Origin: a virus
DNA: 64,000 nucleotides
Virus record (IMG/VR): IMGVR_UViG_3300030104_005963
Reading direction: 5' to 3' (one strand)
Under the pieces are notes generated by a model, which had not been told where the DNA came from, did no database searches, and saw only the letters and a list, made by a program, of their open reading frames with translations. A program made the translations under genes and the position numbers. How positions within the stretch are numbered: position 1 is the first letter of the stretch; every line of letters starts with the position of its first letter. Below, piece by piece: positions 4,595 through 55,736 of the stretch.

Positions 4595-4595
4595 T

Positions 4596-4796
4596 ATGAT
4601 TAGAGTAGAAGGACATTCCCACTTATATCGTGATAAAAAAACTGGCACTATAATTAATACGGATACTGTGGGATATCAAAATTATTTAAAATCTTCCAAA
4701 ATTGCTGAAGAAAAGAAAAAAGAACTTGATAGTATGAAAGAAGATATTGAAGATATTAAAGGTGCTTTAAAGGAGATTTTAAATAAACTTACATAA
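4596..4796 (+). CDS. Small coiled-coil hypothetical protein
   Basis: 66-aa ORF starting 1 nt after the previous stop. Confidence 0.7.
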   Translation: MIRVEGHSHLYRDKKTGTIINTDTVGYQNYLKSSKIAEEKKKELDSMKEDIEDIKGALKEILNKLT

Positions 4797-4839
4797 ATAT
4801 ATCCCTAAATACTAATTAGATAACAATATATTGAAGTAA

Positions 4840-5181
4840 ATGGCTGCTGTATATGTTAGTAATATTGTAATTAATCAAGGAGCTGATTTTTCCCAAGTCT
4901 TCAACCTAGCTGATGAATCAAATGATCAAATTAATCTTACTGATTTTGTTCTTTCAGCACAAATGAGAAAACATGCTGGTAGCAGTGTAAGCACTAATCT
5001 TAATCCAACAGTAGTATCACCTCCAACAAGTGGTGGAGTTAGAATAACTTTGACTGATACCCAAACATCTACATTAAAACCGGGTAGATATGTTTATGAT
5101 ATTTTAATTACAGATACTTCTGGTCTTAAAACAAGAGTCGTTGAAGGTTCAGCAATCGTCCGGGAGGGAGTAACCAGATAA
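4840..5181 (+). CDS. Hypothetical, probable virion beta-sandwich protein
   Basis: 113-aa ORF; INQGADF and LKPGRYVYDILIT motifs typical of phage structural Ig-like domains. Confidence 0.65.
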   Translation: MAAVYVSNIVINQGADFSQVFNLADESNDQINLTDFVLSAQMRKHAGSSVSTNLNPTVVSPPTSGGVRITLTDTQTSTLKPGRYVYDILITDTSGLKTRVVEGSAIVREGVTR

Positions 5182-9338: not shown

Positions 9339-10685
9339 ATGTCGAAGTGTAAGACAGGTTACTATTACTGTTATACTGACAAAAAATGTAAACCAATCTC
9401 TAAAGGTTTAAAAGTCACTGCCAGATTTTCTGGTGGTGGAAGAGAACCTGAAGAAGTTGGCATTGATAAACCGCTAAATGGAAATGGAAATCACTCAAAT
9501 GGCAATGGAAATGGGAGCGGGATCTCTAATGGTGGCTCTAATGGAGGCGTCAGTGAAGGATCGCTTCATAAATGGTTTAAGGGATCCAAATCAAAAGATG
9601 GTAAAGGTGGATGGGTTAATGTCGTCACAGGTGGGACTTGCGCCAGTGATAAACCGGGAGAGGGAACACCAAAATGTGTTTCGTCAGCAAAACGAGCAAG
9701 TATGAGTAAGGCAGAAAGACTTTCTGCTGCCAGAAGAAAAAAGAAAGCAGACCCAGGACAACAACAAAAATCTGGTGCCGCAAAACCAACTTATGTCTCT
9801 ACAGATAAGAAAAAAATGAAAAAAGAAGAAGTAGAAGTAACTGAAGCAAAGGACAAAAAAGGTAAGGGTAGTGGTACAAAAGACGACTGTTATCATAAGG
9901 TAAAGTCCAGATATAGTGTATGGCCTTCTGCATATGCCTCAGGTGCCCTTGTAAAGTGCCGTAAGGTTGGTGCTGCTAATTGGGGTAATAAGTCTGAATC
10001 TGTGGATTACTCGAACTGGAGAGATGACTTTAAGGCAATGAATTATGAGTTCATCGATCTCATTAAACCAGAACCTTTGAATAATGAGCAGATTGATGAA
10101 GGACAAAAATGTTGGAAGGGTTATGAAAAGAAAGGAACCAAAAAAATGTTTGGTAAAACCTATAATAATTGTGTAAAAAAAGAAGAAACTGAAGTAAAGG
10201 AGAGTCATAAAAATCCTGAAAGTGTAAAAGGTATTGCTAAAGAATTGGATAAAGCAGTTGAAATGCATAAGAGTCAAGCAAAAAGACTTAGGAAAGCTGG
10301 TGTATCTGAAGGCAAATCTGATGGTGATCCTTGCTGGGATACTCATAAGCAAGTAGGTATGAAGAAAAAGAATGGTAGAATGGTTCCTAATTGTGTTCCA
10401 AAAGAAGAATTTTCTGATTGGAGATCCGAAATTAAAGAGGGAGCTGCCTGGACAAAAAAGTCTGGTAAAAATGCTTCAGGTGGATTAAATGAAAAAGGTC
10501 GTAAGTCTTATGAAAGAGAGAATCCTGGTTCAGATCTAAAAGCACCATCTAAAAAAGTTGGCAATAAAAGAAGAGCATCATTCTGTGCAAGAATGAAAGG
10601 TATGAAAAAGAAACTTACTTCTGCCAAAACAGCAAATGATCCAGATAGCAGAATCAATAAATCTTTGAGAGCTTGGAATTGTTAA
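9339..10685 (+). CDS. Modular Lys-rich protein between the terminase genes (candidate internal-head polyprotein)
   Basis: 448-aa ORF of short basic modules; two CW...NCV repeats. Confidence 0.75.
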   Translation: MSKCKTGYYYCYTDKKCKPISKGLKVTARFSGGGREPEEVGIDKPLNGNGNHSNGNGNGSGISNGGSNGGVSEGSLHKWFKGSKSKDGKGGWVNVVTGGTCASDKPGEGTPKCVSSAKRASMSKAERLSAARRKKKADPGQQQKSGAAKPTYVSTDKKKMKKEEVEVTEAKDKKGKGSGTKDDCYHKVKSRYSVWPSAYASGALVKCRKVGAANWGNKSESVDYSNWRDDFKAMNYEFIDLIKPEPLNNEQIDEGQKCWKGYEKKGTKKMFGKTYNNCVKKEETEVKESHKNPESVKGIAKELDKAVEMHKSQAKRLRKAGVSEGKSDGDPCWDTHKQVGMKKKNGRMVPNCVPKEEFSDWRSEIKEGAAWTKKSGKNASGGLNEKGRKSYERENPGSDLKAPSKKVGNKRRASFCARMKGMKKKLTSAKTANDPDSRINKSLRAWNC

Positions 10686-10694
10686 TTTGATGTT

Positions 10695-12338
10695 ATGAGT
10701 GAAGTATATCTTGGTAATCCTAATTTAAAAAAAGCAAATACACCGATCCAATTCACTGAAGAACAAATAATTGAGTTTCTCAAGTGCAAAGAAGATCCGG
10801 TGTATTTTGCTAATAAGTATATAAAAATTGTTTCTCTTGATGAGGGTCTAACGCAATTTCATCCATATGACTTTCAAGAAAAGTTAATTAATAATTTTCA
10901 TAATAACAGATTTAATATCTGTAAGATGCCAAGACAGACTGGTAAATCTACTACGGTAGTATCTTACCTTTTACATTATGCAGTATTTAATGATAGTGTA
11001 AATATTGGTATCCTGGCAAACAAAGCAGCTACTGCAAGAGAATTGTTGCAAAGATTGCAAACTGCTTATGAGAACTTGCCTAAATGGATGCAACAGGGTA
11101 TATTATCCTGGAACAAAGGATCTATGGAGTTAGAAAATGGCAGTAAGATATTGGCAGCTTCTACGTCTGCAAGTGCTGTCCGAGGCATGTCGTTTAACAT
11201 TCTCTTCCTCGACGAATTTGCCTTCGTTCCAAACCATGTTGCAGACTCGTTCTTTGCCTCTGTTTATCCTACTATTACTTCTGGTAAAAACACCAAGGTA
11301 ATTATCGTATCTACTCCACACGGTATGAATCATTTCTACCGTATGTGGCATGATGCCGAAAGAAGTAAAAATGAGTATATTCCCACCGATGTTCATTGGT
11401 CAGAAGTTCCTGGTAGAGATGAAAAATGGAAGGCAACAACTATTGCCAATACTTCAGAACAACAGTTCAAGGTTGAGTTTGAATGTGAGTTCTTAGGTTC
11501 GGTTAATACTCTTATTAATCCAGCGAAATTAAAAAACCTTGTATACGAGAATCCCATAAAAAGAAATGCCGGATTAGATATTTACGAAGATCCTCAGGAG
11601 AATCATGAATATCTTCTGACAATTGACGTGGCAAGAGGAATAGGAAATGATTATTCGGCATTTATTGTTTTTGACATAACACAGTTTCCGTATAAGATAG
11701 TAGCAAAATATAGAAATAATGAAATTAAACCTATGCTATTCCCAAATATTATTAATGATGTTGGGAAGGGATATAATAATGCATGGATATTAGTAGAAGT
11801 AAATGATATTGGAGATCAAGTGGCTTCTATCATGCACTATGATTTAGAATACGATAATATTCTTATGGCAGCAATGAGGGGTCGTGCTGGACAAGTCGTG
11901 GGAACAGGATTTAGTGGTAAAAAATCACAACTTGGTGTCAGAATGACTGCAGCAGTTAAAAAGTTAGGATGCTCCAACTTAAAAACTATGATGGAGGATG
12001 ATAAGTTACTGACTACAGATTATGAAATTATATCAGAACTTACCACATTTGCACAGAAAGGAAATTCTTTTGAGGCAGAAGAAGGATGTAACGATGATTT
12101 GGCAATGTGTCTTGTAATATTTTCATGGTTAGTAGCACAAGATTATTTTAAAGAAATGACAGAGAATGATGTTCGTAAAAGAATATATGAAGAACAAAGA
12201 AATCAAATAGAACAGGATATGGCACCTTTTGGATTTATAGAAACTGGATTTGAAACTAGTAACTTTGTAGATGCCGATGGAGATAGATGGTATGCAGACG
12301 AATATGGTGATAGATCTTATATGTGGGATTATATGTAA
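10695..12338 (+). CDS. gp17: Terminase large subunit gp17
   Basis: Walker A RQTGKST, Walker B LFLDEFAF, nuclease DVARG and DDLAM motifs. Confidence 0.97.
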   Translation: MSEVYLGNPNLKKANTPIQFTEEQIIEFLKCKEDPVYFANKYIKIVSLDEGLTQFHPYDFQEKLINNFHNNRFNICKMPRQTGKSTTVVSYLLHYAVFNDSVNIGILANKAATARELLQRLQTAYENLPKWMQQGILSWNKGSMELENGSKILAASTSASAVRGMSFNILFLDEFAFVPNHVADSFFASVYPTITSGKNTKVIIVSTPHGMNHFYRMWHDAERSKNEYIPTDVHWSEVPGRDEKWKATTIANTSEQQFKVEFECEFLGSVNTLINPAKLKNLVYENPIKRNAGLDIYEDPQENHEYLLTIDVARGIGNDYSAFIVFDITQFPYKIVAKYRNNEIKPMLFPNIINDVGKGYNNAWILVEVNDIGDQVASIMHYDLEYDNILMAAMRGRAGQVVGTGFSGKKSQLGVRMTAAVKKLGCSNLKTMMEDDKLLTTDYEIISELTTFAQKGNSFEAEEGCNDDLAMCLVIFSWLVAQDYFKEMTENDVRKRIYEEQRNQIEQDMAPFGFIETGFETSNFVDADGDRWYADEYGDRSYMWDYM

Positions 12339-12559
12339 TGGATTTTGATAGTCAGATAAATTTAGAACATCTGCTTTTTTATGATAGAGAATGTAGAACT
12401 TGCCATAAGACAAAAAATTTATTGGAAGACTTTTATCTTATAAGAAAAAATAGAGGAGCACTACCATCTTCATATTCCTATGAGTGTAAAGAGTGTACTA
12501 TCGATAGAGTAAAAGGTAATAAAAAATGTAGTAATGTTTGGGAATATCCTGATTGGTAG
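12338..12559 (+). CDS. Small zinc-finger protein
   Basis: ATG overlaps the gp17 stop (TAATG); CRTC...CKEC pairs. Confidence 0.65.
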   Translation: MDFDSQINLEHLLFYDRECRTCHKTKNLLEDFYLIRKNRGALPSSYSYECKECTIDRVKGNKKCSNVWEYPDW

Positions 12560-12637
12560 TTCATGCATCGTTTCCCCACTGAAAATACCCCTTTTCCTAA
12601 ATATTTTTAGGTAATTTGGATTGCGAGGAAAAGCAAG

Positions 12638-14860
12638 ATGCCATTAAATTTAGCATCTCCTGGAATTCTGATAAGAGAAGTTGACCTCACTCAGGGTAGA
12701 GTTGATGCAACTTCTGACAAGATCGGCGGTATTGTCGGTCCTTTTGTACAAGGTCCAGTAGGTACAGTAACTAGAATTAACACAGAGAATGATTTAGTTG
12801 ATAAATTTGGAAGACCATATAGTGAAGATAAACACTACGAGACTTGGATGACAGCATCATCCTATTTGGCTTATGGTGGCATCATGAATGTTGTCAGAGC
12901 AGATGATTCTGGTCTTAAAAATGCTCATGATGTAGGTGCCGGAACTACGATAAAAATAAAAAGTCGTGATCATTATGTAGAATTAAATTATCCAGTGACA
13001 CCACTTCTTGGTGCTACAGTAATTGCCAAAAATCCAGGTTCTTGGGCAAATGATATTCGAGTTGCAATTATTGATGCTCAGGCAGATCAAAGATTAACTT
13101 TTGATCAAACACCTGAAGGTGGAACACAAGTTGCTGTTGGCATGGGTGTTACTCAGGCAGTTCCAGAGGGAACAGTAGTTTCTAGAACTGGTGTTGGTGC
13201 AGGAAAAACTGAACTTCTTGACGGACATTTTAAAGGAATCATAACAAAAGTAAATTCAGGAAATGTAGATGTAAAAGTTGTTTCTCATGTATCTGTTGCC
13301 GGAACTTCCACTGCTGTTGAATATAATAATATCTATAGATTTTCTACAACAAGTAATGTTGCGATTCATACCGCAGGACAATCAGTTTCTTATGCATCAA
13401 CTACAGTATCTGGTGCTGTTGATTGGTTTGGAGAGCAAACAATAGCAGTGAGTTCACAAACTGTTGGTGGAACTGAAACTACATCCACAGTTAAATGGAA
13501 TACATTGGCAAATGCTCCAGGAACTTCTGCATATGCCGAGGCAAGAGGAGCAAAAAATGATGAAATTCATGTTGTTGTAATTGATGGTAAAGGAACAATT
13601 ACTGGAAATGCCGGAACAATTCTTGAGAAACATCTCAGTCTTTCTAAGGCATCTGATGCAGAATTTTCAGTAGGTTCTCCATCTTATTGGAATAGATATT
13701 TGGAAGTTAATTCCGAATATATTTTTGCCGGAAGTGGAACAAATCAAACTCTGGTAAAAACTGGTTTTGATGGCACAGGATTCACTACATTTACGGATGG
13801 TGGTTGGAATCAACTGGCAGAAGATGCTGATGGTCCAAATATTTTTGATGCTTGTGGACCATTAGATCTTACTTTAAGTCAAGGTACTAATTATGGAGGT
13901 AAATCTACAATAGAATCAGGAGCACTTAATTCTGGTCTTGATGATTTAATCAGTGGTTATTCATTATTTGAAAATGAATCAGAAGTAGATGTTGATTTTC
14001 TTTTGATGGGATCTGGAAAATATGATAAACCCGATACTAGAGCACTTGCAACTAAACTAATTCAAGTTGCAGAAGCAAGAAAGGATGCAGTCGCATTTAT
14101 TTCACCACATAGAGGTGCAATTTTAACTGACACATCAGATGATACTGCAGTAACTATTAACTCTGTAGAAGATGCAACTACAAATATAATTGATTTCTTT
14201 AATCCTATCACATCTTCATCTTATGGAATATTTGATAGTGGTTATAAGTACATGTATGATAGATTTAATGATGTATTCAGATATGTTCCTTTAAATGGGG
14301 ACATTGCCGGAACTTGTGCTAGAAATGATATTAATAACTTCCCATGGTTCTCACCTGCCGGAACTGCTAGAGGAACTATTCTCAATGCTGTAAAACTGGC
14401 ATATAATCCAGGAAAAGTTCAAAGAGATAGACTTTATTCTTCCAGAGTTAATCCAGTCATCTTCTCACCAGGATCGGGAATTATCCTATTTGGTGATAAA
14501 ACTGGATTTGCCAAGGCATCGGCATTTGATCGCATCAATGTTCGTCGTCTCTTTATTTTCCTTGAAGATGCTATTGCTGCTGCAGCAAGAGATCAACTCT
14601 TTGAATTTAATGATGAAATTACAAGAGCAAACTTTGTAAATATTGTTGAACCTTTCCTTCGTGATGTTCAAGCAAAGAGAGGTATTCAAGATTTCATTGT
14701 TATTTGTGATGAAACAAATAACACTGCTGCAATTATTGACAGTAATGAATTTGTTGCTGATATATACATCAAGCCAGCAAGATCGATTAACTTCATCGGT
14801 CTGAACTTTATCGCCACCAGAACTGGTGTGGCATTTGAAGAAGTCATCGGTTCCGTTTAA
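12638..14860 (+). CDS. gp18: Tail sheath protein gp18
   Basis: SPGILIREVD, WFSPAGTARG, FDRINVRRLF, FEFNDEITR. Confidence 0.97.
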   Translation: MPLNLASPGILIREVDLTQGRVDATSDKIGGIVGPFVQGPVGTVTRINTENDLVDKFGRPYSEDKHYETWMTASSYLAYGGIMNVVRADDSGLKNAHDVGAGTTIKIKSRDHYVELNYPVTPLLGATVIAKNPGSWANDIRVAIIDAQADQRLTFDQTPEGGTQVAVGMGVTQAVPEGTVVSRTGVGAGKTELLDGHFKGIITKVNSGNVDVKVVSHVSVAGTSTAVEYNNIYRFSTTSNVAIHTAGQSVSYASTTVSGAVDWFGEQTIAVSSQTVGGTETTSTVKWNTLANAPGTSAYAEARGAKNDEIHVVVIDGKGTITGNAGTILEKHLSLSKASDAEFSVGSPSYWNRYLEVNSEYIFAGSGTNQTLVKTGFDGTGFTTFTDGGWNQLAEDADGPNIFDACGPLDLTLSQGTNYGGKSTIESGALNSGLDDLISGYSLFENESEVDVDFLLMGSGKYDKPDTRALATKLIQVAEARKDAVAFISPHRGAILTDTSDDTAVTINSVEDATTNIIDFFNPITSSSYGIFDSGYKYMYDRFNDVFRYVPLNGDIAGTCARNDINNFPWFSPAGTARGTILNAVKLAYNPGKVQRDRLYSSRVNPVIFSPGSGIILFGDKTGFAKASAFDRINVRRLFIFLEDAIAAAARDQLFEFNDEITRANFVNIVEPFLRDVQAKRGIQDFIVICDETNNTAAIIDSNEFVADIYIKPARSINFIGLNFIATRTGVAFEEVIGSV

Positions 14861-17203: not shown

Positions 17204-17371
17204 ATGGACGACGTACTAGATTTGATTGCTTCAGGTGCTTCTGCATCTGAAATTAGTGATAAAATTAAAAATGCTTTATATGATAAGGCATCTTCAAAAA
17301 TTGATGGTATTCGTGCTGATGTCGGTGCCTCCATGTTTGATAACTCAGAAGAATCACAAGAGGAAGAATAA
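17204..17371 (+). CDS. Small acidic protein, gp67-like prohead core candidate (absent from ORF track)
   Basis: 55-aa ORF MDDVLDLIASG...SQEEE read from the DNA; follows a late promoter; stop overlaps the next ATG. Confidence 0.7.
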   Translation: MDDVLDLIASGASASEISDKIKNALYDKASSKIDGIRADVGASMFDNSEESQEEE

Positions 17372-17644: not shown

Positions 17645-18295
17645 ATGAAACTTATCACAGAAGAAATTTCAAATGTAAAAATTATTACCGAGGGCAAAGG
17701 TTCTGGTAAAAAATTATATATTGAAGGAGTATTTCTCCAAGGAAACATTAAAAACCGCAATGGTAGAATGTATCCTATGGAAACTCTTGCCCGTGAGGTA
17801 AAAAGATATAATGAAACTTTTGTGAATAAGGGTCGTGCTCTTGGAGAACTTGGTCATCCTGACGGACCAACTGTAAATCTTGATAGAGTTTCTCATAAAA
17901 TTACTTCTCTCTCAGAAGACGGAAATAATTTTAAAGGAAAAGCACAAATTCTTAATACCCCAATGGGTAAGATTGCATCTTCTCTTCTTGATGAAGGTGT
18001 AATGCTCGGAGTTTCTTCTCGTGGTGTTGGTTCACTTAAAACAACTAGTGAAGGTCATAAAGTTGTTGGCGAAGATTTTATGTTAGCAACAGCTGCTGAT
18101 ATTGTGGCAGACCCTTCTGCTCCCGATGCTTTTGTTTCCGGAATTATGGAAGGAAAAGAGTGGGTTTGGGAAGGAGGAATTCTTCGTGAACAACTTGCAG
18201 AAACCACTGCAAAGAGAATTAATACATTAGTTGATCAAAGAAGACTTGAAGAGCATAAGTTGAATTTATTCAACGATTTTTTATCAAATCTTTAA
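17645..18295 (+). CDS. gp21: Prohead protease gp21
   Basis: NRNGRMYP, ALGELGHP, GVSSRGVGS, DIVADPSAPDA. Confidence 0.96.
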   Translation: MKLITEEISNVKIITEGKGSGKKLYIEGVFLQGNIKNRNGRMYPMETLAREVKRYNETFVNKGRALGELGHPDGPTVNLDRVSHKITSLSEDGNNFKGKAQILNTPMGKIASSLLDEGVMLGVSSRGVGSLKTTSEGHKVVGEDFMLATAADIVADPSAPDAFVSGIMEGKEWVWEGGILREQLAETTAKRINTLVDQRRLEEHKLNLFNDFLSNL

Positions 18296-18336: not shown

Positions 18337-19443
18337 ATGTCCGTTGGTAACGATTTACAAGAAATGGAAAACGTAGTAACTAAAGGTGCTGCCAAAGCTG
18401 ATCCGATGCCAAAGATGTCCGGTTCTACTCCCGGACAACCTGCAGTTGAAGATCTTGGTGGACCTACCCCAGAAAATTACAAAGTCGATGACGATTCCGC
18501 TAAACTAAAAGAACCAAAAGTTGCAACTGTTAAAGACATTGTTAACAAAGGTGCTGGTAAAGCAGATCCTATGCCTTCAGGAATGAAGGAAGAGGAAGAA
18601 GTCGAAGGTGATGTAGTAGCCGAGGAAGAAGAAACTTCAACCGAAGAAGTAGTTGCTGAAGAAGAAACTACTGAGGAAGAAGTTGTAGAAGAAGAAATCA
18701 TCGAAGATGATACTCCTTCTATCGAAGAGGATATCGAAGCACTTATTGCTGGTGAAGAACTCTCCGAAGAATTCCAAGAAAAAGCACGTACAATTTTTGA
18801 AGCAGCCATCAAAACTAAGGTTGCTGAAATGAAAGAAGAGGTACAAAAAGAGTACGAAGTATCTCTGACTGAAGAAGTTGCCAACCTCAAGTCTGAATTA
18901 ACCGAAAGAGTTGATTCTTATCTTGAGTATGTTGCTCAAGAATGGTTGACCGAAAATCAACTCTCGGTTGAGCAAGGACTTAAAACTGAAATGACCGAAT
19001 CATTCCTTACTGGAATGAAGAGTCTTTTTGAAGAACATTATGTATCAATCCCTGAAGAGAAATATGATGTACTCAATAGTATGGTAGAAAAACTTGATGA
19101 GATGGAAGATAAACTCAACGAGCAAATCAATAAAAATATTGCTTTAAACAAAAGATTGGCTGAGTCGGTTGCAGATGTAATTCTTGCAGATGTATCCGAA
19201 GGACTTGCAGTATCTCAAAAGGATAAGCTTGCTTCTCTTGCCGAAAATGTTGAGTTTGATGGTGATCAATCCTATCGTGAAAAACTGGTAACTCTTAGAG
19301 AAGCATATTTCTCCTCTAATACCGGTGTTCAAGAGAACAAATCGGAAACAATTTCTGAAGAGACCGAAACAGGTCATCAGGTAGAGACTTCTACTATGAT
19401 GGAATCGTATCTCCAGACATTGAATAGAGTTTCCAAGAAGTGA
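18337..19443 (+). CDS. gp22: Prohead core scaffold gp22
   Basis: Acidic coiled coil, LSEEFQEKARTIFEAA, position before gp23. Confidence 0.93.
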   Translation: MSVGNDLQEMENVVTKGAAKADPMPKMSGSTPGQPAVEDLGGPTPENYKVDDDSAKLKEPKVATVKDIVNKGAGKADPMPSGMKEEEEVEGDVVAEEEETSTEEVVAEEETTEEEVVEEEIIEDDTPSIEEDIEALIAGEELSEEFQEKARTIFEAAIKTKVAEMKEEVQKEYEVSLTEEVANLKSELTERVDSYLEYVAQEWLTENQLSVEQGLKTEMTESFLTGMKSLFEEHYVSIPEEKYDVLNSMVEKLDEMEDKLNEQINKNIALNKRLAESVADVILADVSEGLAVSQKDKLASLAENVEFDGDQSYREKLVTLREAYFSSNTGVQENKSETISEETETGHQVETSTMMESYLQTLNRVSKK

Positions 19444-19493: not shown

Positions 19494-20867
19494 ATGCTGC
19501 AAATGCCTTCTCAAGAGGCTCTGCAGGAGAAGTGGGCACCTATCCTCAATCATGAGGGTATGGATTCAATCAAAGATAACCATCGTGCGATGGTTACTGC
19601 TCAACTCCTGGAGAACCAAGAACAAATGCTCAAGGAAGAAAGAGAATTTCTTTCTGAGGCCCCAACCAATGCTACTGGTGCAAACATCAGTAATTTCGAT
19701 CCCGTTCTGATCTCTCTGATCAGACGTTCAATGCCTAACCTGGTTGCATATGACCTGGCTGGCGTACAACCAATGAATGGTCCTACCGGACTTATCTTTG
19801 CAATGCGTTCACGTTACACTTCACAGAGTGGAACTGAAGCATTCTTCAACGAGCCAGATTCCGGATTCTCTGCACAGAGAGAAGGTAATGATGCTACTCA
19901 AGGACCTTACAGCACTGGTTCTGACGATGATACCGTTGGTTTCGGTACTGCCGGTGCTCAAATTGGAAGCAATCCTGCTGCTCTGAACCCAGAGTCAGAT
20001 GCAAATCAGGGTACATACACAGTCGGTCAGGGTATGACCACTGCTAATGCTGAAGGTCTTGGTGAATCTGGTAATGCTTTCAACGAGATGGCATTCTCAA
20101 TCGAGAAAGTCACCGTTACTGCCATGAGCAGAGCACTGAAAGCAGAGTATTCACTGGAACTGGCACAAGACCTCAAGGCTATTCATGGTCTGAATGCTGA
20201 GGCTGAACTCGCAAATATTCTCTCTACTGAGATTCTTGCTGAGATCAACCGTGAAGTCATCAGAACCATCTATAAGTCTGCTGAAGTCGGTGCTACTTTG
20301 AATACCGCAACTTCTGGTACTTTCGACCTCGACGTTGACTCTAACGGACGTTGGAGTGTTGAGAAGTTCAAGGGTCTTATTTTCCAAATGGAAAGAGATG
20401 CTAACCAGATTGCACAGAGAACTCGTAGAGGAAAGGGCAACATGATCCTCTGCTCTGCAGACGTTGCTTCCGCACTCACCATGGCTGGTGTACTTGATTA
20501 CACCCCTGCTCTGAATGCAAACCTCAATGTAGATGACACTGGTAACACCTTTGCTGGTGTTCTTGGTGGTAAGTTCCGTGTCTACATCGATCCTTATGCT
20601 GCTAACAATGCTGCTAACCAGTATTACGTAGCTGGTTATAAGGGTTCTTCACCTTATGACGCAGGACTCTTCTACTGTCCTTATGTTCCTCTCCAAATGG
20701 TTCGTGCCGTTGGTGAGAACACCTTCCAGCCAAAAATCGGGTTCAAGACTCGTTATGGCATGGTCGCTAACCCATTTGCCGAAGGCACCAATACAACCAA
20801 CACTGGTCGTATTACTGCCAGCAGCAACCGTTACTACAGACGTGTTAAGGTTGCCAACCTTATGTGA
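19494..20867 (+). CDS. gp23: Major capsid protein gp23
   Basis: GVQPMNGPTGLIFAMRSRY, RALKAEYSLELAQDLKAIHG, FQPKIGFKTRYG. Confidence 0.98.
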   Translation: MLQMPSQEALQEKWAPILNHEGMDSIKDNHRAMVTAQLLENQEQMLKEEREFLSEAPTNATGANISNFDPVLISLIRRSMPNLVAYDLAGVQPMNGPTGLIFAMRSRYTSQSGTEAFFNEPDSGFSAQREGNDATQGPYSTGSDDDTVGFGTAGAQIGSNPAALNPESDANQGTYTVGQGMTTANAEGLGESGNAFNEMAFSIEKVTVTAMSRALKAEYSLELAQDLKAIHGLNAEAELANILSTEILAEINREVIRTIYKSAEVGATLNTATSGTFDLDVDSNGRWSVEKFKGLIFQMERDANQIAQRTRRGKGNMILCSADVASALTMAGVLDYTPALNANLNVDDTGNTFAGVLGGKFRVYIDPYAANNAANQYYVAGYKGSSPYDAGLFYCPYVPLQMVRAVGENTFQPKIGFKTRYGMVANPFAEGTNTTNTGRITASSNRYYRRVKVANLM

Positions 20868-46183: not shown

Positions 46184-46220
46184 CTTTTAGTTAGTTTAAA
46201 TAAATACCTAAAAAAGTATA

Positions 46221-47519
46221 ATGGCAAAAAGTCTCCTTGATACAGACCTTTATACTAAGGTAGTTACTGTTATCAACGACAACCTTTATGATCTGGGTAT
46301 GTCGATTGACGATAAAAGAACTGAAGGATCATACATTTATATTATGTGTGATGAGGATAGACTTGAAACTCAAGAATCCTTGGAAATGGAAATTGAAAGA
46401 ATTTCTGGACTCCGATGTAGTAGAAAATATGTAAAGTCAAAGTCATCAACTGATTTAACTGAGGTTGATGGTTTTAGCAAAAAAGTCAATATTGTATTTA
46501 AAAACACCAGGGGTGGGATGCAGGAAACCACCCTTAATTCTACTATTACTGAATTGTTCCCAGCGATTGCTTTTGAAGCGGGTGTCAGCACAAATCTTGA
46601 ACCTGCCGTGTTTTACAATAAACTTGTAGAAGCAAATAATCCAAAATTTGGTGCGTATAAAAATAAGAGTGCATATGAAGCTGGCAAACCTTTTTTAGAT
46701 AAAGCACCGACTTCTTCCAAGTTTGAAGAAAAAACAATTAATGCTCAGGCAATTACTAGATGGTTGATCGGTGAAAATAAAAGAAAAAAAATTGCAAAAG
46801 TTGTTTGGGGGTATCGTAATAACTTGAAACCAGAGGGAGTTGCACCTAATCATAAGGGAGATATTTTTGCTGTTTTTGATGATGGAAGTATTTTAGGCAT
46901 TTCTCTTAAAGCTGGTGGAGCAAAAACTGCTGAACCACAATTCAATAGTTATGTTAGACCTATCTTCACTTCTTTTGGAATGCTTAATGATTATACAAAA
47001 CTTGAAAAAAAATCATATGAAACTTTCTATAAAGGAATTCCCAATATAACTCAACAAAACACTTATGGAAAACAGACAATGACAAAGGTTATAGGTGCTT
47101 TTGAAAAGATGAATCCAAAACAATATGAAATGTTATATGATGCACAGTTGGAATTTGTTAGACAGTATATTTGTGATATGATGAATAAGTATCCAGTAAA
47201 GGCAAAAAATTGGTTACTTCGTGAAGTTGCTGCAGAACAGGAAGGAGTTCCTCTTATTGTTTTAAAAGCTGCTGGTAGTGATACACAAGTAATTAATGAT
47301 GAAAATATAATTAAAGATTGTGTTCAGACATCTAAAAAAGCAAATGGTATAAAGGCATATCCATCGAAGACATCAAAACAAAATTGGCATATTGATTTAA
47401 CTTGTAGAACACATACTACAACTTTAAATTTTTCAATTAGAACAAATAAAACTGGAATAAGTCATAAACTTGGACAATATATTAATCTTGCGGTCAAATT
47501 TAATGGTATAAAAAAATGA
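46221..47519 (+). CDS. Putative PD-(D/E)xK restriction-like nuclease
   Basis: TELFP...KGDIF...GISLK motif arrangement; TAAATAAATA upstream. Confidence 0.5.
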   Translation: MAKSLLDTDLYTKVVTVINDNLYDLGMSIDDKRTEGSYIYIMCDEDRLETQESLEMEIERISGLRCSRKYVKSKSSTDLTEVDGFSKKVNIVFKNTRGGMQETTLNSTITELFPAIAFEAGVSTNLEPAVFYNKLVEANNPKFGAYKNKSAYEAGKPFLDKAPTSSKFEEKTINAQAITRWLIGENKRKKIAKVVWGYRNNLKPEGVAPNHKGDIFAVFDDGSILGISLKAGGAKTAEPQFNSYVRPIFTSFGMLNDYTKLEKKSYETFYKGIPNITQQNTYGKQTMTKVIGAFEKMNPKQYEMLYDAQLEFVRQYICDMMNKYPVKAKNWLLREVAAEQEGVPLIVLKAAGSDTQVINDENIIKDCVQTSKKANGIKAYPSKTSKQNWHIDLTCRTHTTTLNFSIRTNKTGISHKLGQYINLAVKFNGIKK

Positions 47520-47746
47520 ACTCACAAATACTTGACTTGATAAAGTCCTTTGAACCGAATTCAAAAAATGGTAGAGATAATTATGAGCAACTTCTTATTC
47601 ATATCTATCATACTTTTGATAAAAGAATTAACTTCACAAAGTCTCAGACATTAAAAGATAAATATAAACATATGCGTCAAGGTGCATTAGAATACATTGT
47701 ATTGCACAAACAACAGGTAATAAGAGAATTAAGTAAAAGGAAGTGA
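47516..47746 (+). CDS. Hypothetical protein
   Basis: 76-aa ORF coupled to both neighbours. Confidence 0.65.
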   Translation: MNSQILDLIKSFEPNSKNGRDNYEQLLIHIYHTFDKRINFTKSQTLKDKYKHMRQGALEYIVLHKQQVIRELSKRK

Positions 47747-48903
47747 TGAAGAATTTTTTTCAATTTTTATCTGAATCAACTGCAGTCCAGCAGGCAAAAA
47801 GAATGGGACTGGTTGGTGATGGTCATGGTGGATGGTATGATAAGAAGGGTGAGTTTGTAGCAAAAACTGAGAAAGGACAACTTAAGTTTTATAATAAAAG
47901 GCAACGTGTTGGTAAACAAGATCCACCAAATACTGATACCGAGAAAAGATTATCTCAGGCAACTTCAAGTAGTGAAATTCAAGAACCACAAGGTCCGCCT
48001 GAAGTTGAAAAAACAAAAGGAACTTTGACCGTTGCTTTTGGTAGATTCAATCCTCCTACCACAGGACATGAAAAACTTTTGGATACAGTCGCATCAAGTT
48101 CTGATGAAGGTGACTATATTATTGTCCCATCACGTAGTCAGGATAAGAAAAAGAATCCTTTAGATCCTGATACTAAAGTTGAGATTATGAAACAAATGTA
48201 TCCTGGTCATAGTGGCAAAATTGTAAATGATCCTGGTAATAGAACAATTTTTGATGTACTGAAGAAAGCACATACTGATGGATATGCCGGAGTTCGTATT
48301 CTTGGTGGTGCAGATAGAGTAAAAGAATTTGAAAAACTAGCAAATGATTATAATGGTAAACTTTATAACTTTGATAATGTAGAAGTTCTTTCTGCTGGAG
48401 ATAGAGATCCTGATTCTGAAGGAACAGAAGGAATGTCTGCATCAAAACAAAGAAAGGCAGCTGCCGAAGGTGATTATAATTCTTTCAGAAAAGGTGTTCC
48501 GACATCTATGAACGATAAACAAGCAAAGGAGTTATATAATACTCTTCGTACTGCAATGGGTATTAAAGAAGGTTGGAGTCTTTGGCAAATTGCACCTAAG
48601 TTTGATTGGAAAAATCTTCGTGAAAATTTTGTAAAGAAAAACATTTACAGGGTTGGTGATATTGTAGAAAATCTCAATACTGGTCTGGTTGGTAAGATTA
48701 TTCGTAGAGGCACTAACTATCTTATCTGTGTCACCGAAGATGATATTATGTTTAAGTCTTGGATTAAAGATGTAACCGATGTGTCTGGTGTTCCTGCAAA
48801 TCAAAGAGAAGTTGGAACCGATGCTCTTCGTAAGTATGCAGAGACTATGGTGAAGGGTTCTAGTTGGGGCAGGCAATTCATAAATAAATATAAGAAAAAG
48901 TAA
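47746..48903 (+). CDS. HxGH-superfamily nucleotidyltransferase (cytidylyltransferase/NMNAT-like)
   Basis: VAFGRFNPPTTGHEKL, ILGGADR, MSASKQR. Confidence 0.85.
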   Translation: MKNFFQFLSESTAVQQAKRMGLVGDGHGGWYDKKGEFVAKTEKGQLKFYNKRQRVGKQDPPNTDTEKRLSQATSSSEIQEPQGPPEVEKTKGTLTVAFGRFNPPTTGHEKLLDTVASSSDEGDYIIVPSRSQDKKKNPLDPDTKVEIMKQMYPGHSGKIVNDPGNRTIFDVLKKAHTDGYAGVRILGGADRVKEFEKLANDYNGKLYNFDNVEVLSAGDRDPDSEGTEGMSASKQRKAAAEGDYNSFRKGVPTSMNDKQAKELYNTLRTAMGIKEGWSLWQIAPKFDWKNLRENFVKKNIYRVGDIVENLNTGLVGKIIRRGTNYLICVTEDDIMFKSWIKDVTDVSGVPANQREVGTDALRKYAETMVKGSSWGRQFINKYKKK

Positions 48904-48913
48904 TTGTCTTCAG

Positions 48914-50386
48914 ATGGATAAACCTGCACAACAGGCACCTGGTGCTAATGATAAAGTAAGAAAGGCTGCTAGACAGTTAGCATACGATGTTCGATATAAA
49001 GTAAAAGGTCAGTTTAAGGACGGACAAAAAACTGATCCTGCTTCACTGAAGCGTGCTTATATGCAGCAACTGGGTAAGTCTCCGGCACCTGGTCCTGTAA
49101 AGGCACTTGCTAAAAAGATGCTGATTGGCGAAGAATATGATTTTGTAAATCTTAATGATACTGCCAGTGATGCTGTTCTTAGTGTCTTTGAAAAAATCTT
49201 TGAAGGGGCAGAAGGAAGTAAGTATACTGTAAGAGTTAAGGATAAGAAAACTGGTAAGTCTTATCTTAGAAAAGCAGATCGTGCTAAGATTGCAGAACTG
49301 AGAAAGAATCCTAATATTGCTTCTGTAGAAATTGCCGGTAAGAGTGCTGCAGAACCTAGTACTTATGATAAGACTGGAAAGGGTAAGAAAGCTGCTAAAG
49401 ATTATGATGGTGATGGAAAAATTGAGTCTGGAACCGCAGAGTATATGGGTTCCAGAGATAAGGCCATTAAGAAGGCAATGGCAAAAGAAGAGTTTATTGG
49501 TGAAGTTGCCGAAGGTGAACAGAAGGAAAAGAAACTTGATATAATGAAGGGTAAGAATAAGGTTGTTGTAAATCCACCAATGAATGAGCAACAATCTGAG
49601 ATGGATAAATCCAAAACTGGACCTTCTCCAGAGGATAAGAAGCAACTTGACAATAAGAAGAAGATGCTTCAGAAAAAAATGATGATGCAGAGGCAGACAA
49701 TGCAAATGCAAAGACAGGGAAGACTTCCTTTAAATTATAGTGAAGAAAATGAAGGAAATGGTGCATGTTTAAAATGTGGAGAGATTCATGAAGGATCATG
49801 TGAACCCAAATCCAAAGAAATGAAGGATGCTCCTGATTCTAGAGGAAATTATGCCATGATGAACTTGATTAAAAATAAATTGAGAGCAAGAGGACTTAAG
49901 ATGTCTTATGATATGGAGGGAGATTTAGTTGATGAAGCAATGCGTCCTGGTGAACGTCAAAAAAAAGTAGCAGCAAAAGTGCATGATCCATCTGCATCAT
50001 CTAAAACTCGTGCAGTTGCCCATAATGTGGCAGTCCGTAATGATGGACCTGGAACTCCTGGTTATGAAAAAAAATCAACTGGCGGAAAGGGTGCTAGATT
50101 TGCAGGATATGGTGATCAAGGTGCTGGTAATAAAGCACGTCGTCGTGCAGGACAAGAACCACTGAGAGGTGATACTCGTAAGGAATCAACCGAAGATTCT
50201 TTAAGAGATCGTCGTATGGAACGTGGTGGTGTTGATGGAAACGTAAGATATGATAAATCTGCTAAGAATGTAGCAATTGGTTCTGCCAAGAAAAAATATG
50301 ATGGAATGTCTGCACTTGAAAAAGTGAAGGCAGATATTCGTGCCAAGCACGGTAAAGGTGCTATTATGGACACCAAGAAGAAGTAA
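48914..50386 (+). CDS. Modular Lys-rich hypothetical protein
   Basis: 490 aa; KDYDGDGKIESG module; CATAAATAAATA upstream. Confidence 0.75.
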   Translation: MDKPAQQAPGANDKVRKAARQLAYDVRYKVKGQFKDGQKTDPASLKRAYMQQLGKSPAPGPVKALAKKMLIGEEYDFVNLNDTASDAVLSVFEKIFEGAEGSKYTVRVKDKKTGKSYLRKADRAKIAELRKNPNIASVEIAGKSAAEPSTYDKTGKGKKAAKDYDGDGKIESGTAEYMGSRDKAIKKAMAKEEFIGEVAEGEQKEKKLDIMKGKNKVVVNPPMNEQQSEMDKSKTGPSPEDKKQLDNKKKMLQKKMMMQRQTMQMQRQGRLPLNYSEENEGNGACLKCGEIHEGSCEPKSKEMKDAPDSRGNYAMMNLIKNKLRARGLKMSYDMEGDLVDEAMRPGERQKKVAAKVHDPSASSKTRAVAHNVAVRNDGPGTPGYEKKSTGGKGARFAGYGDQGAGNKARRRAGQEPLRGDTRKESTEDSLRDRRMERGGVDGNVRYDKSAKNVAIGSAKKKYDGMSALEKVKADIRAKHGKGAIMDTKKK

Positions 50387-50715
50387 TGCCTGCCGTATCT
50401 AAGGCACAACAAAGGTTTATGGGTATGGTGTATGCCGCCAAAAAAGGTGACATGCCCAACCCGTCACCTGAAGTTGCAAAGGCAGCAGAATCTATAAAGA
50501 AAAAAGACGCTAAAGATTTTGCATCAACAAAACATAAAGGTCTTCCAGAAAAGAAAGTTGCAAAAGAAGCAAAAGATTTTTCTCAGAGAGATAAAATTTT
50601 AAAGAGAGCAAAATCTCTCCATAAACATCTATATAAAAATCTTCATAAGAAAGATACTTCTGGTGATGTAAATGAAAGTAAAAAAACGTTTAAAGAGTTT
50701 ATAGGCGATATATAG
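50386..50715 (+). CDS. DUF3008-like protein
   Basis: MPAVSKAQQRFMGM...DFASTKHKGLPEK. Confidence 0.8.
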   Translation: MPAVSKAQQRFMGMVYAAKKGDMPNPSPEVAKAAESIKKKDAKDFASTKHKGLPEKKVAKEAKDFSQRDKILKRAKSLHKHLYKNLHKKDTSGDVNESKKTFKEFIGDI

Positions 50716-50942: not shown

Positions 50943-50950
50943 TATAAATA
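50943..50950 (+). promoter_or_regulatory. Late promoter TATAAATA
   Basis: Exact consensus upstream of 50981. Confidence 0.75.
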
Positions 50951-52470: not shown

Positions 52471-53442
52471 ATGGATTTGGTTGACTCCAAGTATATTGGT
52501 CTGATTTCTTCTCGTCTGCAAAAATTTAAGAAAGTAAAAAACAATCTTTACAACTTTCGTTGCCCCGTCTGTGGGGATTCGCAGAAAAACAAAAATAAGA
52601 CACGGGGGTATCTCTACCAGGTCAAGAATAACACTAACTTTAAGTGCCATAACTGTGGTGCCAGCATGTCATTAAATAATTTTATTAAGACTCTTGATGG
52701 CACACTGCATAAGCAGTATACAATGGAGAAGTTTAAAGAGGGGCATACGGGTAAAAACTTTGTTGTTGAAGAACCAAAGTTGGTATTTAAAAAACCAGTA
52801 TTTAAAAAATCAATCAATCTTCCTAAGGCATCTTCAAATTCCGTTGCCAGACAATATCTTGAGAACAGAAAAATTGATCCTGATAAGTTTTACTATGCAG
52901 ACAGATTTAAATCATGGACAAATACACAGAAAAAAACATTCGATAATGTAGGCAGAGACGAACCAAGAATCATTATACCCATGTATGATGAGACAAAAAA
53001 TTTAATAGGATTTCAGGGGAGAGCACTAGATAAATCTCCTAATAAATATATCACCATTATGATTCAGGAAGAGGCAGCAAAAGCATATGGAATCGAAAAA
53101 ATTGATAAGACCTCAGTCGTCTATATCACAGAAGGTCCTTTCGACTCAACATTTATACGCAACTCGATTGCTATGTGCGGAGCTGATGCTGATGTCCACG
53201 ATTGGGGTATTAGCAATCCTGTTTGGGTTTACGACAACGAACCTCGAAACAAGGAAATTGTCCAACGAATTAATAGAACAATCGATAGTGGCGACTCCGT
53301 AATTATTTGGCCATCAAATATAGGAGAAAAAGATATTAACGACATGGTTCTTGCTGGACATGACGTTATGTCTATGTTAGAATCAAACACATATAGTGGT
53401 CTAGAAGCAAAAATCAAATTCAACAATTGGAAAAAAATATGA
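52471..53442 (+). CDS. gp61: DNA primase gp61
   Basis: CPVCGD...CHNCG zinc finger; EGPFDS and YDNE TOPRIM motifs. Confidence 0.96.
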   Translation: MDLVDSKYIGLISSRLQKFKKVKNNLYNFRCPVCGDSQKNKNKTRGYLYQVKNNTNFKCHNCGASMSLNNFIKTLDGTLHKQYTMEKFKEGHTGKNFVVEEPKLVFKKPVFKKSINLPKASSNSVARQYLENRKIDPDKFYYADRFKSWTNTQKKTFDNVGRDEPRIIIPMYDETKNLIGFQGRALDKSPNKYITIMIQEEAAKAYGIEKIDKTSVVYITEGPFDSTFIRNSIAMCGADADVHDWGISNPVWVYDNEPRNKEIVQRINRTIDSGDSVIIWPSNIGEKDINDMVLAGHDVMSMLESNTYSGLEAKIKFNNWKKI

Positions 53443-55736
53443 GTAACGGTACAAAAGTAGTCAAGAGAAACGGAACAACAGAACCTCTTGATTTGAATAA
53501 ACTCCATAAAATGGTGGATGAGGCATGTAAGGATCTTGCCGGAGTTTCTGCAAGTCAGGTTGAAATTCAATCTGGCATTCAATTTTATGATGGTGTTTCT
53601 ACCGCAGAAATTCAACAAATTTTAATTCGTTCTGCTTCCGATCTCATTGATCTTGAGCATCCTAATTATCAATTTGTAGCTGCACGTCTTCTTTTATTTT
53701 CGTTGCGTAAGCAATTGTTTGGACGTATGCACCAGGCACCGACACTCAAAAGTCATGTCGATGATTGTATCGGAAGAGGTATATATGATGCAGAGATTAT
53801 AAATCTGTATGATAAAGACGAATTCGATAAACTTCAATCTTTTATCGATCATGATCGTGACTTCTTGTTTACGTATGCCGGATTACGGCAAGTCGTAGAT
53901 AAATATCTTGTACAAGATAGGAGTACCGGAGAACTTTATGAAACTCCGCAGTTTATGTATCTGCTGATTGCTGCAACCATATTCTCCAAATATCCTAAAG
54001 AGACAAGATTGGATTATGTCAAAAGATACTACGACGCAATCTCCAAACACAAAATCAACATTCCCACACCTATCATGGCAGGAGTGCGAACTCCACTTCG
54101 ACAATATGCTAGCTGTGTTCTTGTTGATGTTGATGACTCCCTCGATAGCATCTTTAGTTCTGATATGGCTATCGGCAGGTATGTTGCACAAAGGGCGGGA
54201 ATCGGTATCAACGCAGGCAGAATCCGTGGCGTCAACAGTAAAATCAGAGGTGGAGAAGTTCAACACACAGGTGTTGTTCCTTTCCTTAAAAAGTTTGAAT
54301 CTACTGTCCGGTGTTGTACACAAAATGGAATACGAGGTGGCTCAGCAACTGTCCACTTCCCAATCTGGCACCAAGAAATCGAAGACATCATCGTCCTGAA
54401 GAATAACAAAGGAACTGAAGATAATCGTGTCAGAAAACTTGATTACTCAATTCAGATTTCAAAACTTTTCTACGAACGTTTTATCCAGAATAGAGAGATT
54501 AGCCTCTTCTCACCGCATGACGTACCAGGTCTCAATGATGCTTTTGGTACTGATTTATTTGACGATCTCTATGTACGTTATGAATCAGATGAGTTTACTC
54601 CAAGAAAAACTATTGGAGCACAAGAACTTTTTCTAAACATCTTGAAAGAAAGAGCAGAAACTGGTAGACTGTATATCATGAATATTGATCACTGCAATAG
54701 TCATTCATCTTTCCATGATAAAGTTGAGATGAGTAATTTGTGTCAGGAGATCACTCTTCCAACTAAACCACTGAACCACATTGACGATGAATCTGGAGAA
54801 ATTGCTCTCTGTATCCTTTCTGCTATTAATATTGGTAAAATTAGGGGCAATGAGGATCTTGAAAGCCTCTGTGATCTTGCTGTTAGGGGTCTTGATGAAC
54901 TTATTGATTTTCAAGGATACCCCATCAGAGCAGCAGAAATTGCCACAAAGGCAAGGAGATCCCTTGGTATCGGTTACATTGGACTAGCACATTATCTTGC
55001 CAAGAATGGATTGTCTTATGACAATCCTGAGGCATGGAAACTGGTTCATGATCTTACAGAAGCATTCCAATATTATCTTATTCGTGCTACAATAGATCTT
55101 GCCAAAGAAAAAGGTGCCTGTGAATACAGTCATAGAACAAAGTATGGAAGTGGAATTCTTCCCATTGATACATATAAGAGTGATGTAGATGAAATAGTCC
55201 CGAATGAGCTTAACTATGATTGGGAGAGTCTTCGGAACGACATCATTCAATATGGAGTACGGAACTCAACACTGTCGGCACAAATGCCTTCAGAGAGCAG
55301 TTCTGTTGTGTCAAATGCCACAAATGGAATCGAACCACCTAGAGCGTACTTGTCCACTAAAAAGAGTAAAAAGGGAACCCTTAAACAAGTTGTTCCACAA
55401 TACACAACTCTTAAAAACAATTATACGCTTCTTTGGGATATGGAGTCCAATAATGGTTATATTAATATTGTTGCTGTGATGCAAAAATTCTTTGATCAGG
55501 CAATTTCTGGCAACTGGAGTTATAATCCACAACAATATGAAAATAATGAAGTTCCTGTTTCTGTGATGGCACAGGACTTACTTAAAACCTATAAGTATGG
55601 ATGGAAGACTTCTTACTATCAAAATACATATGATAATAAAAATGATGAACTTGAAGAACAAAAATCCGAATTAGAAAGTTTAATCAATCAATTAGAAACC
55701 GCCGAGGAGGAAGACTGTGAGTCTTGTAAAATTTAA
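53439..55736 (+). CDS. nrdA: Class Ia ribonucleotide reductase alpha subunit
   Basis: ATP-cone VVKRNG, ASCVL, SNLCQEI, C-terminal CESCKI. Confidence 0.97.
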   Translation: MSNGTKVVKRNGTTEPLDLNKLHKMVDEACKDLAGVSASQVEIQSGIQFYDGVSTAEIQQILIRSASDLIDLEHPNYQFVAARLLLFSLRKQLFGRMHQAPTLKSHVDDCIGRGIYDAEIINLYDKDEFDKLQSFIDHDRDFLFTYAGLRQVVDKYLVQDRSTGELYETPQFMYLLIAATIFSKYPKETRLDYVKRYYDAISKHKINIPTPIMAGVRTPLRQYASCVLVDVDDSLDSIFSSDMAIGRYVAQRAGIGINAGRIRGVNSKIRGGEVQHTGVVPFLKKFESTVRCCTQNGIRGGSATVHFPIWHQEIEDIIVLKNNKGTEDNRVRKLDYSIQISKLFYERFIQNREISLFSPHDVPGLNDAFGTDLFDDLYVRYESDEFTPRKTIGAQELFLNILKERAETGRLYIMNIDHCNSHSSFHDKVEMSNLCQEITLPTKPLNHIDDESGEIALCILSAINIGKIRGNEDLESLCDLAVRGLDELIDFQGYPIRAAEIATKARRSLGIGYIGLAHYLAKNGLSYDNPEAWKLVHDLTEAFQYYLIRATIDLAKEKGACEYSHRTKYGSGILPIDTYKSDVDEIVPNELNYDWESLRNDIIQYGVRNSTLSAQMPSESSSVVSNATNGIEPPRAYLSTKKSKKGTLKQVVPQYTTLKNNYTLLWDMESNNGYINIVAVMQKFFDQAISGNWSYNPQQYENNEVPVSVMAQDLLKTYKYGWKTSYYQNTYDNKNDELEEQKSELESLINQLETAEEEDCESCKI

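Follow-up and report, generated by a model that had tools for sequence, protein, structure and literature searches.

The CTase gene and its N-terminal decapeptide

A 64,000-nucleotide stretch of viral DNA, IMG/VR record IMGVR_UViG_3300030104_005963, has the gene order of a T4-like cyanomyovirus with all genes on the + strand; this whole stretch is referred to here as the window, and the nearest relative of its phage is Synechococcus phage S-SKS1. The gene of interest encodes a 385-amino acid (aa) protein of the family labeled 'cytitidyltransferase' (CTase), and the element under study is the first ten residues of that protein, a proposed capsid-targeting propeptide. Features of the gene and of the head genes discussed with it are collected in Table 1.

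The open reading frame (ORF) delimited in a first-pass annotation of the window is a real, full-length member of a known core family. It matches PHROG 395 with an E value of 3.7e-105 (aa 86–380 on profile positions 5–297), and its product is 52–58% identical over the full length to the 'cytitidyltransferase' genes of P-SSM2, P-TIM68, S-SM2, ACG-2014f, and many more, the P-SSM2 orthologue being labeled T4-GC 190. Over 8000 close sequences belong to the family, which has 4378 representatives when clustered at 50%, and T4-GC190 is a core gene in 16 of 16 cyanomyoviruses compared (PMC3037559). Translation from ATG 47746, as annotated, is not in doubt, because every homologue starts at the aligned Met-Lys; this codon shares bases (TGATG) with the stop of the preceding 76-aa ORF. 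The order of the surrounding genes, comprising gp41-like (43634), MazG-like (45004), CTase (47746), primase-like (52471), and NrdA (53439) genes, is that of S-SKS1 and P-SSM2.

The best of 568 matching phage records is an S-SKS1 region 74% identical to the 385-aa protein. No coding sequence (CDS) is annotated for the CTase gene at this position of the S-SKS1 record (HQ633071.1; L001 8001–9229 and W01 73061–73234), where the match falls into two pieces and the frame open from the start spans only 116 aa, reflecting a frameshift that is either real or a sequencing error.

The protein begins Met-Lys-Asn-Phe-Phe-Gln-Phe-Leu-Ser-Glu, with Ser as residue 11. The N-termini of the T4 internal proteins IPII and IPIII (NC_000866) have the same length and pattern, Met-Lys-x-aromatic-x-x-Phe-aliphatic-x-Glu and then a small residue, which is Ala in T4. 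According to a review of L. Black's work (PMC9026906), the N-terminal ten residues of IPIII are by themselves enough for encapsidation in T4, and mutagenesis assigned targeting chiefly to positions 4 and 7 and processing to positions 8 and 10. At these four experimentally important positions the CTase holds Phe4, Phe7, Leu8, and Glu10.

All 120 of the 120 closest homologues keep the decapeptide with minor variation. Across 79 aligned diverse members, Lys2 occurs in 60, Phe4 in 71, and Glu10 in 66, with Phe or Tyr at position 7 in 65 and Leu or Ile at position 8 in 61. The T4-like N-terminus described in the first-pass annotation is thus borne out, both as a reading of the peptide and in its conservation. 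Among five phages, the conserved residues are encoded by different synonymous codons and the sequence upstream of the gene is unrelated, which places selection on the decapeptide at the protein level; a nucleotide-level element at the gene start is ruled out on the same grounds.

Many family members lack an N-terminal extension and carry the peptide directly before strand 1 of the enzyme domain; in the cyanophage forms some 85 residues, including a low-confidence linker, lie between the two. As the sequence is kept while its distance to the fold changes, we conclude that the decapeptide is not part of the enzyme fold. A role within the Rossmann fold is excluded by this separation of 85 residues and by the presence of the peptide on unrelated proteins, and a signal peptide or membrane anchor by the lack of any hydrophobic stretch. 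Over 1144 six-frame start/stop candidates of the window, a loose form of the N-terminal pattern was matched by the CTase ORF and one other, an in-frame TTG start 18 codons inside the ORF at 53439–55736.

The presumed processing enzyme, a gp21-type prohead protease, is encoded in the window beside gp67-like and gp22 genes, and it keeps the Gly-Glu-Leu-x-His-Pro and Gly-Val-Ser-Ser-Arg-Gly blocks around the catalytic His and Ser. In the window's gp23 gene (19494–20867), the T4 maturation cut FLTE65/A66 (cuts are marked here by a slash) aligns onto FLSE55/A56. The same four residues, FLSE, therefore end the CTase peptide (FLSE/S) and precede the predicted cut in the phage's own major substrate (FLSE/A), so that the identity of the two sites noted in the first-pass annotation holds on alignment with T4 gp23.

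A further Ile-Lys-Glu/Gly site, which had been placed before the C-terminal domain, is present in an interdomain loop of lower predicted local distance difference test score (pLDDT). The pattern is kept in 61 of 76 sequences, 39 of which have a small residue next. The only [LIVMF]-x-Glu sites that are conserved and usually followed by a small residue are those at 8–10 (59/78) and 273–275 (61/76). Judged from this pattern, cleavage at Glu275, between the enzyme and SH3-like domains, is a tentative prediction that we hold to be somewhat doubtful.

Table 1. Positions of the CTase gene, its predicted domains and sites, the head genes considered with it, and the tagged virion proteins of S-CREM2. 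A slash marks a predicted or known cut.
Feature	Position	Strand	Remarks
CTase CDS, 385 aa	47746–48903	+	'cytitidyltransferase', T4-GC190 / PHROG 395; ATG 47746, TAA 48901–48903
Start region	47737–47748	+	Shine-Dalgarno-like AAGGAAG (47737–47743), TGATG overlap, ATG
Late-promoter-like box GATAAATA	47657–47664	+	Within the small ORF preceding the gene, 82 nucleotides (nt) before the start
Residues 1–10, proposed capsid-targeting propeptide	47746–47775	+	Predicted prohead-protease cut after Glu10 (FLSE/S); from conservation and comparison with T4 IPII/IPIII
Residues 11–50, helix and small three-stranded beta module	47776–47895	+	Net basic; pLDDT >90
Residues 51–90, low-confidence linker of variable length	47896–48015	+	pLDDT 51–62; lengths vary among homologues
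Residues 91–270, Rossmann-type nucleotidyltransferase domain	48016–48555	+	PF01467; pLDDT 95–98
(T/H)xGH signature	48040–48069	+	Gly-Arg-Phe-Asn-Pro-Pro-Thr-Thr-Gly-His
Second signature, Met-Ser-Ala-Ser-Lys-Gln-Arg	48433–48453	+	ISxTxxR equivalent; aligned with the MJ0951 motif
Ile-Lys-Glu/Gly, candidate second protease site, aa 273–275/276	48562–48573	+	Loop before the C-terminal domain
Residues 300–346, SH3-like (KOW/Tudor-type) beta barrel	48643–48783	+	pLDDT 90–97
gp67-like acidic prohead core gene	17204–17371		Beside gp21
gp21-type prohead protease, presumed processing enzyme	17645–18295	+	Aligns with T4 gp21, score 271
gp22 homologue	18337–19443		Beside gp21
Predicted gp23 maturation site FLSE55/A56	19647–19661	+	Aligned with T4 gp23 FLTE65/A66
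S-CREM2 set of tagged virion proteins with late-promoter boxes, including an S-adenosylmethionine (SAM) lyase (Pfam PF23780), a protein kinase, and several small proteins	S-CREM2 loci 3837–5081, 10310–10546, 10579–12846, 12843–13331; L015 7301–8014	-, -, -, -; +	

Virion proteins and putative late genes bearing the decapeptide

Sullivan et al. (2010, PMC3037559) recorded 25 peptide counts for T4-GC190 in purified virions of S-SM1, in which the portal gave 18, and labeled it a structural protein in their S-SM1 table. CTase orthologues were likewise found by mass spectrometry in the virion proteomes of S-SZBM1, S-SCSM1 (52% identical to the window protein), and S-CREM2. Virion detection of the family, an injected role relating to nicotinamide adenine dinucleotide (NAD+), or both have been described (PMC3037559, PMC9146016, PMC9602691, PMC10665884), two of these papers having already proposed carriage with an effect on NAD+ levels (PMC9602691, PMC10665884). 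The cyanophage virion-proteome papers reporting the CTase mention no targeting sequence. Our literature searches returned no paper tying capsid targeting to cyanophages, the T4 review being the only match, and none for the term 'cytitidyltransferase'; the CBB jumbo phage paper contains no virion data for the CTase gene. Earlier publications thus cover the gene family, its association with virions, and the notion of injection; apparently unpublished are the targeting-tag mechanism, its agreement with the protease site of the phage itself, and the broader group of tagged late proteins.

The genome of S-CREM2 (OR473000.1) was taken from its record, the 52 virion proteins of its Table 3 were translated, and 3939 six-frame start/stop candidates were scanned with a deliberately loose N-terminal pattern. 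Five of the nine matches fell at annotated gene starts, and all five of these proteins, ORF6 (SAM lyase), ORF13, ORF14 (kinase), ORF136, and ORF154 (CTase), are in the virion proteome (hypergeometric probability ~6e-4, with 52 virion proteins among 221 annotated features). In one further protein of this phage, ORF12, the pattern begins 15 residues in. In the positive control, T4 (2472 candidates), the pattern picked out four proteins known to be cut by gp21, namely IPII, IPIII, Alt, and gp24, together with the 54-aa gp61.1 and three junk frames. The same scan of S-SM1 gave seven matches, six of which look spurious and the seventh of which is the CTase. If the S-CREM2 SAM lyase is indeed injected, it would be an anti-restriction enzyme delivered with the DNA.

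A late-promoter-like box lies upstream of the CTase in five phages, at -27 in S-CREM2, -30 in ACG-2014f, -85 in P-SSM2, and -82 in both S-SKS1 and the window. The first two are the canonical TATAAATA and the other three are of the GATAAATA type; these three lie within a conserved small ORF and are therefore not independent of one another. The background frequency of ATAAATA is 0.34 per kilobase (kb) on the + strand of the window and 0.089 per kb per strand in S-CREM2. In S-CREM2 one or other box stands 26–29 nt before ORF6, ORF13, ORF15 (the head of the kinase operon), ORF136, and ORF154, so that every tag-bearing transcription unit of this phage has a late-promoter box. Across the window TATAAATA occurs 6 times versus 6.8 in shuffles; its count is not raised, and only the position of a box relative to genes carries weight.

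Further late-promoter-like boxes at 46199–46206, 48879–48890, and 50943–50950 directly precede the ORFs at 46221, 48914, and 50981, and from this arrangement the interval 46.2–51.5 kb looks like a late-gene island within the replication module. The gene just downstream of the CTase encodes a detected virion protein in S-SZBM1 (457 aa) and in S-CREM2 (ORF155, ORF156); these proteins have no sequence similarity to the product of 48914–50386 in the window.

We consider it likely that the CTase is an enzyme made late in infection, packaged into the phage head, and passed to the host along with the DNA. Alternatively, it could be a cytoplasmic protein late in infection that is carried over into virion preparations, its N-terminal peptide being either a short linear motif that binds a different protein, for instance a hub of replication or late transcription, or a helix required for stability. 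The gene does sit within the replication module, between gp41/MazG and gp61/NrdA, and AlphaFold draws residues 4–19 as a single helix. T4-GC190 was not detected in the older S-PM2 and Syn9 virion proteomes (PMC3037559), and two proteome papers caution that late proteins made in abundance may co-purify with virions (PMC9602691, PMC10665884). Against carry-over stand detection in four independent CsCl-purified proteomes, with the S-SM1 counts given above, and the absence of highly expressed replication proteins from all four. Carry-over would also leave unexplained why five unrelated tagged S-CREM2 proteins are all in the virion proteome and why the tag equals the gp23 cleavage site, and the T4 control returns head proteins. 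On this evidence we regard carry-over as unlikely.

In the CTase of the window the tag is followed by a beta module with the motif Gly-Leu-x3-Gly-His-Gly-x-Trp-x-Asp ... Val-Ala-x-Thr-x-x-Gly-x-Leu. Searching with residues 1–60 recovered this module on nonhomologous proteins, namely ACG-2014f _178 (981 aa), S-H34 gp180 and gp182 (a 978-aa protein and a kinase), and S-CREM2 ORF12 (869 aa) and ORF14 (a 755-aa kinase with two copies), and most of the unrelated proteins that bear it also begin with the decapeptide pattern. PHROG 3561 matches CTase aa 3–48. One or two copies of the module stand at the N-terminal ends of kinases and of uncharacterized 870–980 aa proteins (PHROG 3561; L005 6489–9431, L004 1109–6320). 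Pfam searches with the CTase and the large tag-bearing proteins found no family for the module, and the ESM Atlas returned for residues 1–56 unnamed clusters only, below 0.9.

Its distribution raises the possibility that the CTase is packaged by means of the beta module (aa 20–50) or the SH3-like domain, binding DNA or the core, and that the decapeptide is merely a removable propeptide that, for example, keeps the enzyme inactive. The module is indeed common to several large virion proteins and occurs twice in kinases, and both it and the C-terminal part of the CTase are net basic, as are T4 internal proteins. Four tagged S-CREM2 virion proteins, however, lack it (ORF6, ORF13, ORF136, and the CTase ORF154), as do most family members outside the cyanophages, and in T4 the ten residues alone are enough for targeting. 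We therefore think it distinctly improbable that the module or the SH3-like domain, rather than the decapeptide, directs the protein to the head.

Three other short sequences resembling the tag were observed. T4 gene 61.1 (NC_000866, 467–631, - strand), the 54-aa hypothetical protein returned by the control scan, starts with a peptide almost identical to the targeting sequence of IPI/IPIII and ending in Ile-Lys-Glu/Asp; it adjoins the primase gene between 41 and 61, the interval occupied by the CTase block in cyanophages. A scan of the S-SKS1 genome gave, besides the CTase, a 102-aa ORF (HQ633071.1, 112701–113009, - strand) that begins with a CTase-like decapeptide ending Leu-Ser-Glu/Ser and, from its sequence, is a candidate small internal protein; it has no counterpart in the window. 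Lastly, a DUF3008 protein in the window (50386–50715; Pfam PF11450, E 2.9e-8) has at its C-terminus Lys-Thr-Phe-Lys-Glu-Phe-Ile, resembling the T4 IPI tag.

Enzyme domains and candidate substrate

The AlphaFold model of the 385-aa protein has a pLDDT of 85.5. Its Rossmann domain scores 30.5 bits against Pfam PF01467 (cut-off 21; aa 97–197). Among the 79 diverse members, Pro103 and His108 of the first signature are invariant and Gly99, Arg100, Asn102, Pro104, and Gly107 are at least 90% conserved, as are Ser231, Ser233, and Arg236 of the second. The first-pass annotation had called the protein an HxGH-family enzyme; its placement in the nucleotidyltransferase superfamily stands, the motif itself being Thr-Thr-Gly-His (aa 105–108), a variant like that of phosphopantetheine adenylyltransferase (PPAT), and the first signature position is His in some family members. 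In the C-terminal part, which is net basic, Arg292, Asn324, and Trp339 are nearly invariant. Comparison of the C-terminal domain alone with 48,161 chains gave generic SH3-like, KOW, or Tudor matches only (Z ≤6.7) and no functional lead.

The structural label given to the S-SM1 protein, together with its status as a core gene in all 16 cyanomyoviruses compared, might suggest that it serves in the structure or assembly of the head or neck, retaining a nucleotidyltransferase fold and having no enzymatic role after delivery. We find this very hard to credit. Both catalytic signatures are nearly invariant across the diverse members, some phages retain only the enzyme-domain part (the genes of P-HM1 and P-HM2, at 570 and 552 nt, encode only ~190 aa; PMC3037559), and no repeat or oligomeric shell features are evident.

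Foldseek matched the Rossmann domain to PPAT, NadM, NadD, and nicotinamide mononucleotide (NMN) adenylyltransferase (NMNAT). Structural alignment of the model with VIA-align gave Z 13–14 for PPAT (6b7a_A, Z 14.1, root-mean-square deviation 2.8, 152 aligned residues) and 12.6–12.9 for NMNAT, NadD, and NadM (archaeal NMNAT, 12.9), with identities of 12–19% including PPAT; as differences near 1 in Z count as ties, the predicted fold is a tie between PPAT and NMNAT. NCBIfam models for NMNAT scored below their cut-offs (TIGR00482, 20.1 against 112; TIGR01526, 19.2 against 341; NF002243, 13.3 against 127), as did that for PPAT (CoaD; TIGR01510, 16.9 against 103.3). A family profile searched against the PDB gave marginal matches only, to MJ0951 (E 0.024), the NMNAT MJ0541 (0.2), and PPAT (0.7).

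By sequence, the CTase is an active-looking member of the superfamily within no characterized subfamily. Adenylyl transfer to NMN or nicotinic acid mononucleotide (NaMN) is ranked first among the possible activities, since NMNAT families dominate the weak sequence matches, and we put it forward as a tentative lead and not a finding. Against it, NMNAT and PPAT models alike fall far short of threshold and the fold comparison is tied, so that the NMNAT-like rebuilding of NAD+ suggested by the first-pass annotation is not established. The papers searched contain no assay of the CTase family.

Proposed role and comparison with known systems

Based on the T4 precedent, residues 1–10 would bind the gp22/gp67 scaffolding core during prohead assembly. 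The gp21-type protease would then cut after Glu10 (FLSE/S), a site of the same type as in gp23, freeing a mature protein of ~42 kDa inside the head, possibly with a further cut after Glu275 (IKE/G) between the enzyme and SH3-like domains. The mature protein would be a (T/H)xGH nucleotidyltransferase of the PPAT/NMNAT type with its catalytic signatures intact. Once ejected, it may act from the outset of infection by transferring AMP or another nucleoside monophosphate to a small phosphorylated molecule, most likely NMN or NaMN, which would be converted to NAD+ or nicotinic acid adenine dinucleotide. We infer core binding, cleavage, ejection, and substrate in this scheme. Of the T4 Alt-like behavior suggested by the first-pass annotation, packaging and the tag are supported (orthologues in at least four virion proteomes; 5/5 in S-CREM2), and cleavage and injection are part of what is inferred.

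Several observations weigh against a targeted, injected CTase in addition to its absence from the S-PM2 and Syn9 proteomes and the warnings about co-purification. The decapeptide itself departs from the pattern in HTVC008M, which has Lys at position 10 and Leu-Lys-Glu at 4–6; a Pseudomonas jumbo phage member has no Glu in the peptide at all, and that of S-SZBM1 is a nine-residue version. Three of the five S-CREM2 matches were already known when the pattern was fixed, and the junk-frame status of the other matches was judged by eye and not by annotation. With regard to late expression, the window's box begins with G and sits within coding sequence, 82 nt before the start codon, and the S-SM1 CTase has no box within 150 nt.

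A broader proposal, on which we are evenly divided, is that the Met-Lys-x-Phe-x-x-Phe-Leu-x-Glu tag together with a late promoter is an ancient loading code, used from T4 to marine cyanophages, that marks an unrecognized arsenal of injected enzymes. This arsenal may include the nucleotidyltransferase, the SAM lyase, protein kinases, 870–980 aa proteins, and small internal protein-like proteins. Were this so, ocean virome sequence would directly reveal injected-effector repertoires, and cyanophage heads could be designed to take up chosen cargo. Since 2010, cyanophage proteome papers have repeatedly reported the CTase, kinases, and other nonstructural proteins in virions without a means to separate cargo from contamination. 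A shared T4-type tag offers both a mechanism and a testable rule, coincides with the gp23 site, late promoters, and virion detection, and would explain the recurrence of the CTase in purified cyanophage particles. If the rule holds, viruses that rank among the most abundant in the ocean encode, as one of their core genes, an injected early-acting enzyme, the T4 targeting system extends across a very deep phage lineage, and injected proteins become predictable from metagenomes. An injected NAD-pathway enzyme would in turn connect to work on NAD+ depletion defense.

Among known enzymes, the CTase is like CoaD, NadM, NadR, and NadD in having a Rossmann core with (T/H)xGH and ISxTxxR-type motifs. 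It differs from PPAT and NMNAT in its scores (13–20 bits against curated cut-offs of 103–341), in the family blocks Ser-x-Ser-Gln-Asp-x-Lys-Lys-Asn-Pro-Leu and Ser-Ala-Gly-x-Arg-Asp-Pro-Asp, and in carrying an SH3-like domain at its C-terminus and lacking a Nudix or kinase partner domain. Should it be an NMNAT, it may share a purpose with NARP1, NARP2, and NARP3; those are two-gene systems (Adps and Namat, Nampt and NMNAT, PnuC and NadR-like, respectively), whereas the CTase is apparently stand-alone, virion-associated, and of a different family. With respect to the cyanophage proteins annotated as 'cytitidyltransferase' or 'NMNAT-like', it is the same protein, to which the present study adds the reading of the tag and protease site.

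The closest parallels are with T4. Like IPII and IPIII, the CTase has a ten-residue tag with Met-Lys at its start, an aromatic residue at 4, Phe at 7, an aliphatic residue at 8, Glu at 10, and a small residue next, and as for the T4 targeted head proteins a gp21-type protease and gp22/gp67-type core genes are encoded alongside, with the cargo varying and the tag constant. Unlike the T4 internal proteins, which are small, fast evolving, and basic, the cargo here is a 42-kDa core-gene enzyme with an extra shared beta module after its tag, and targeting, cleavage, and ejection in cyanophages are predictions. The proposed delivery of an enzyme in the head with the DNA is like that of T4 Alt, an ADP-ribosyltransferase whose N-terminus fits the same pattern search and which is processed by gp21 at both ends (PMC9026906), a feature paralleled by the second candidate site of the CTase; fold and chemistry are unrelated, the CTase being a Rossmann nucleotidyltransferase. 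Relative to T4, the CTase is an additional targeted head protein and not a new kind of system.

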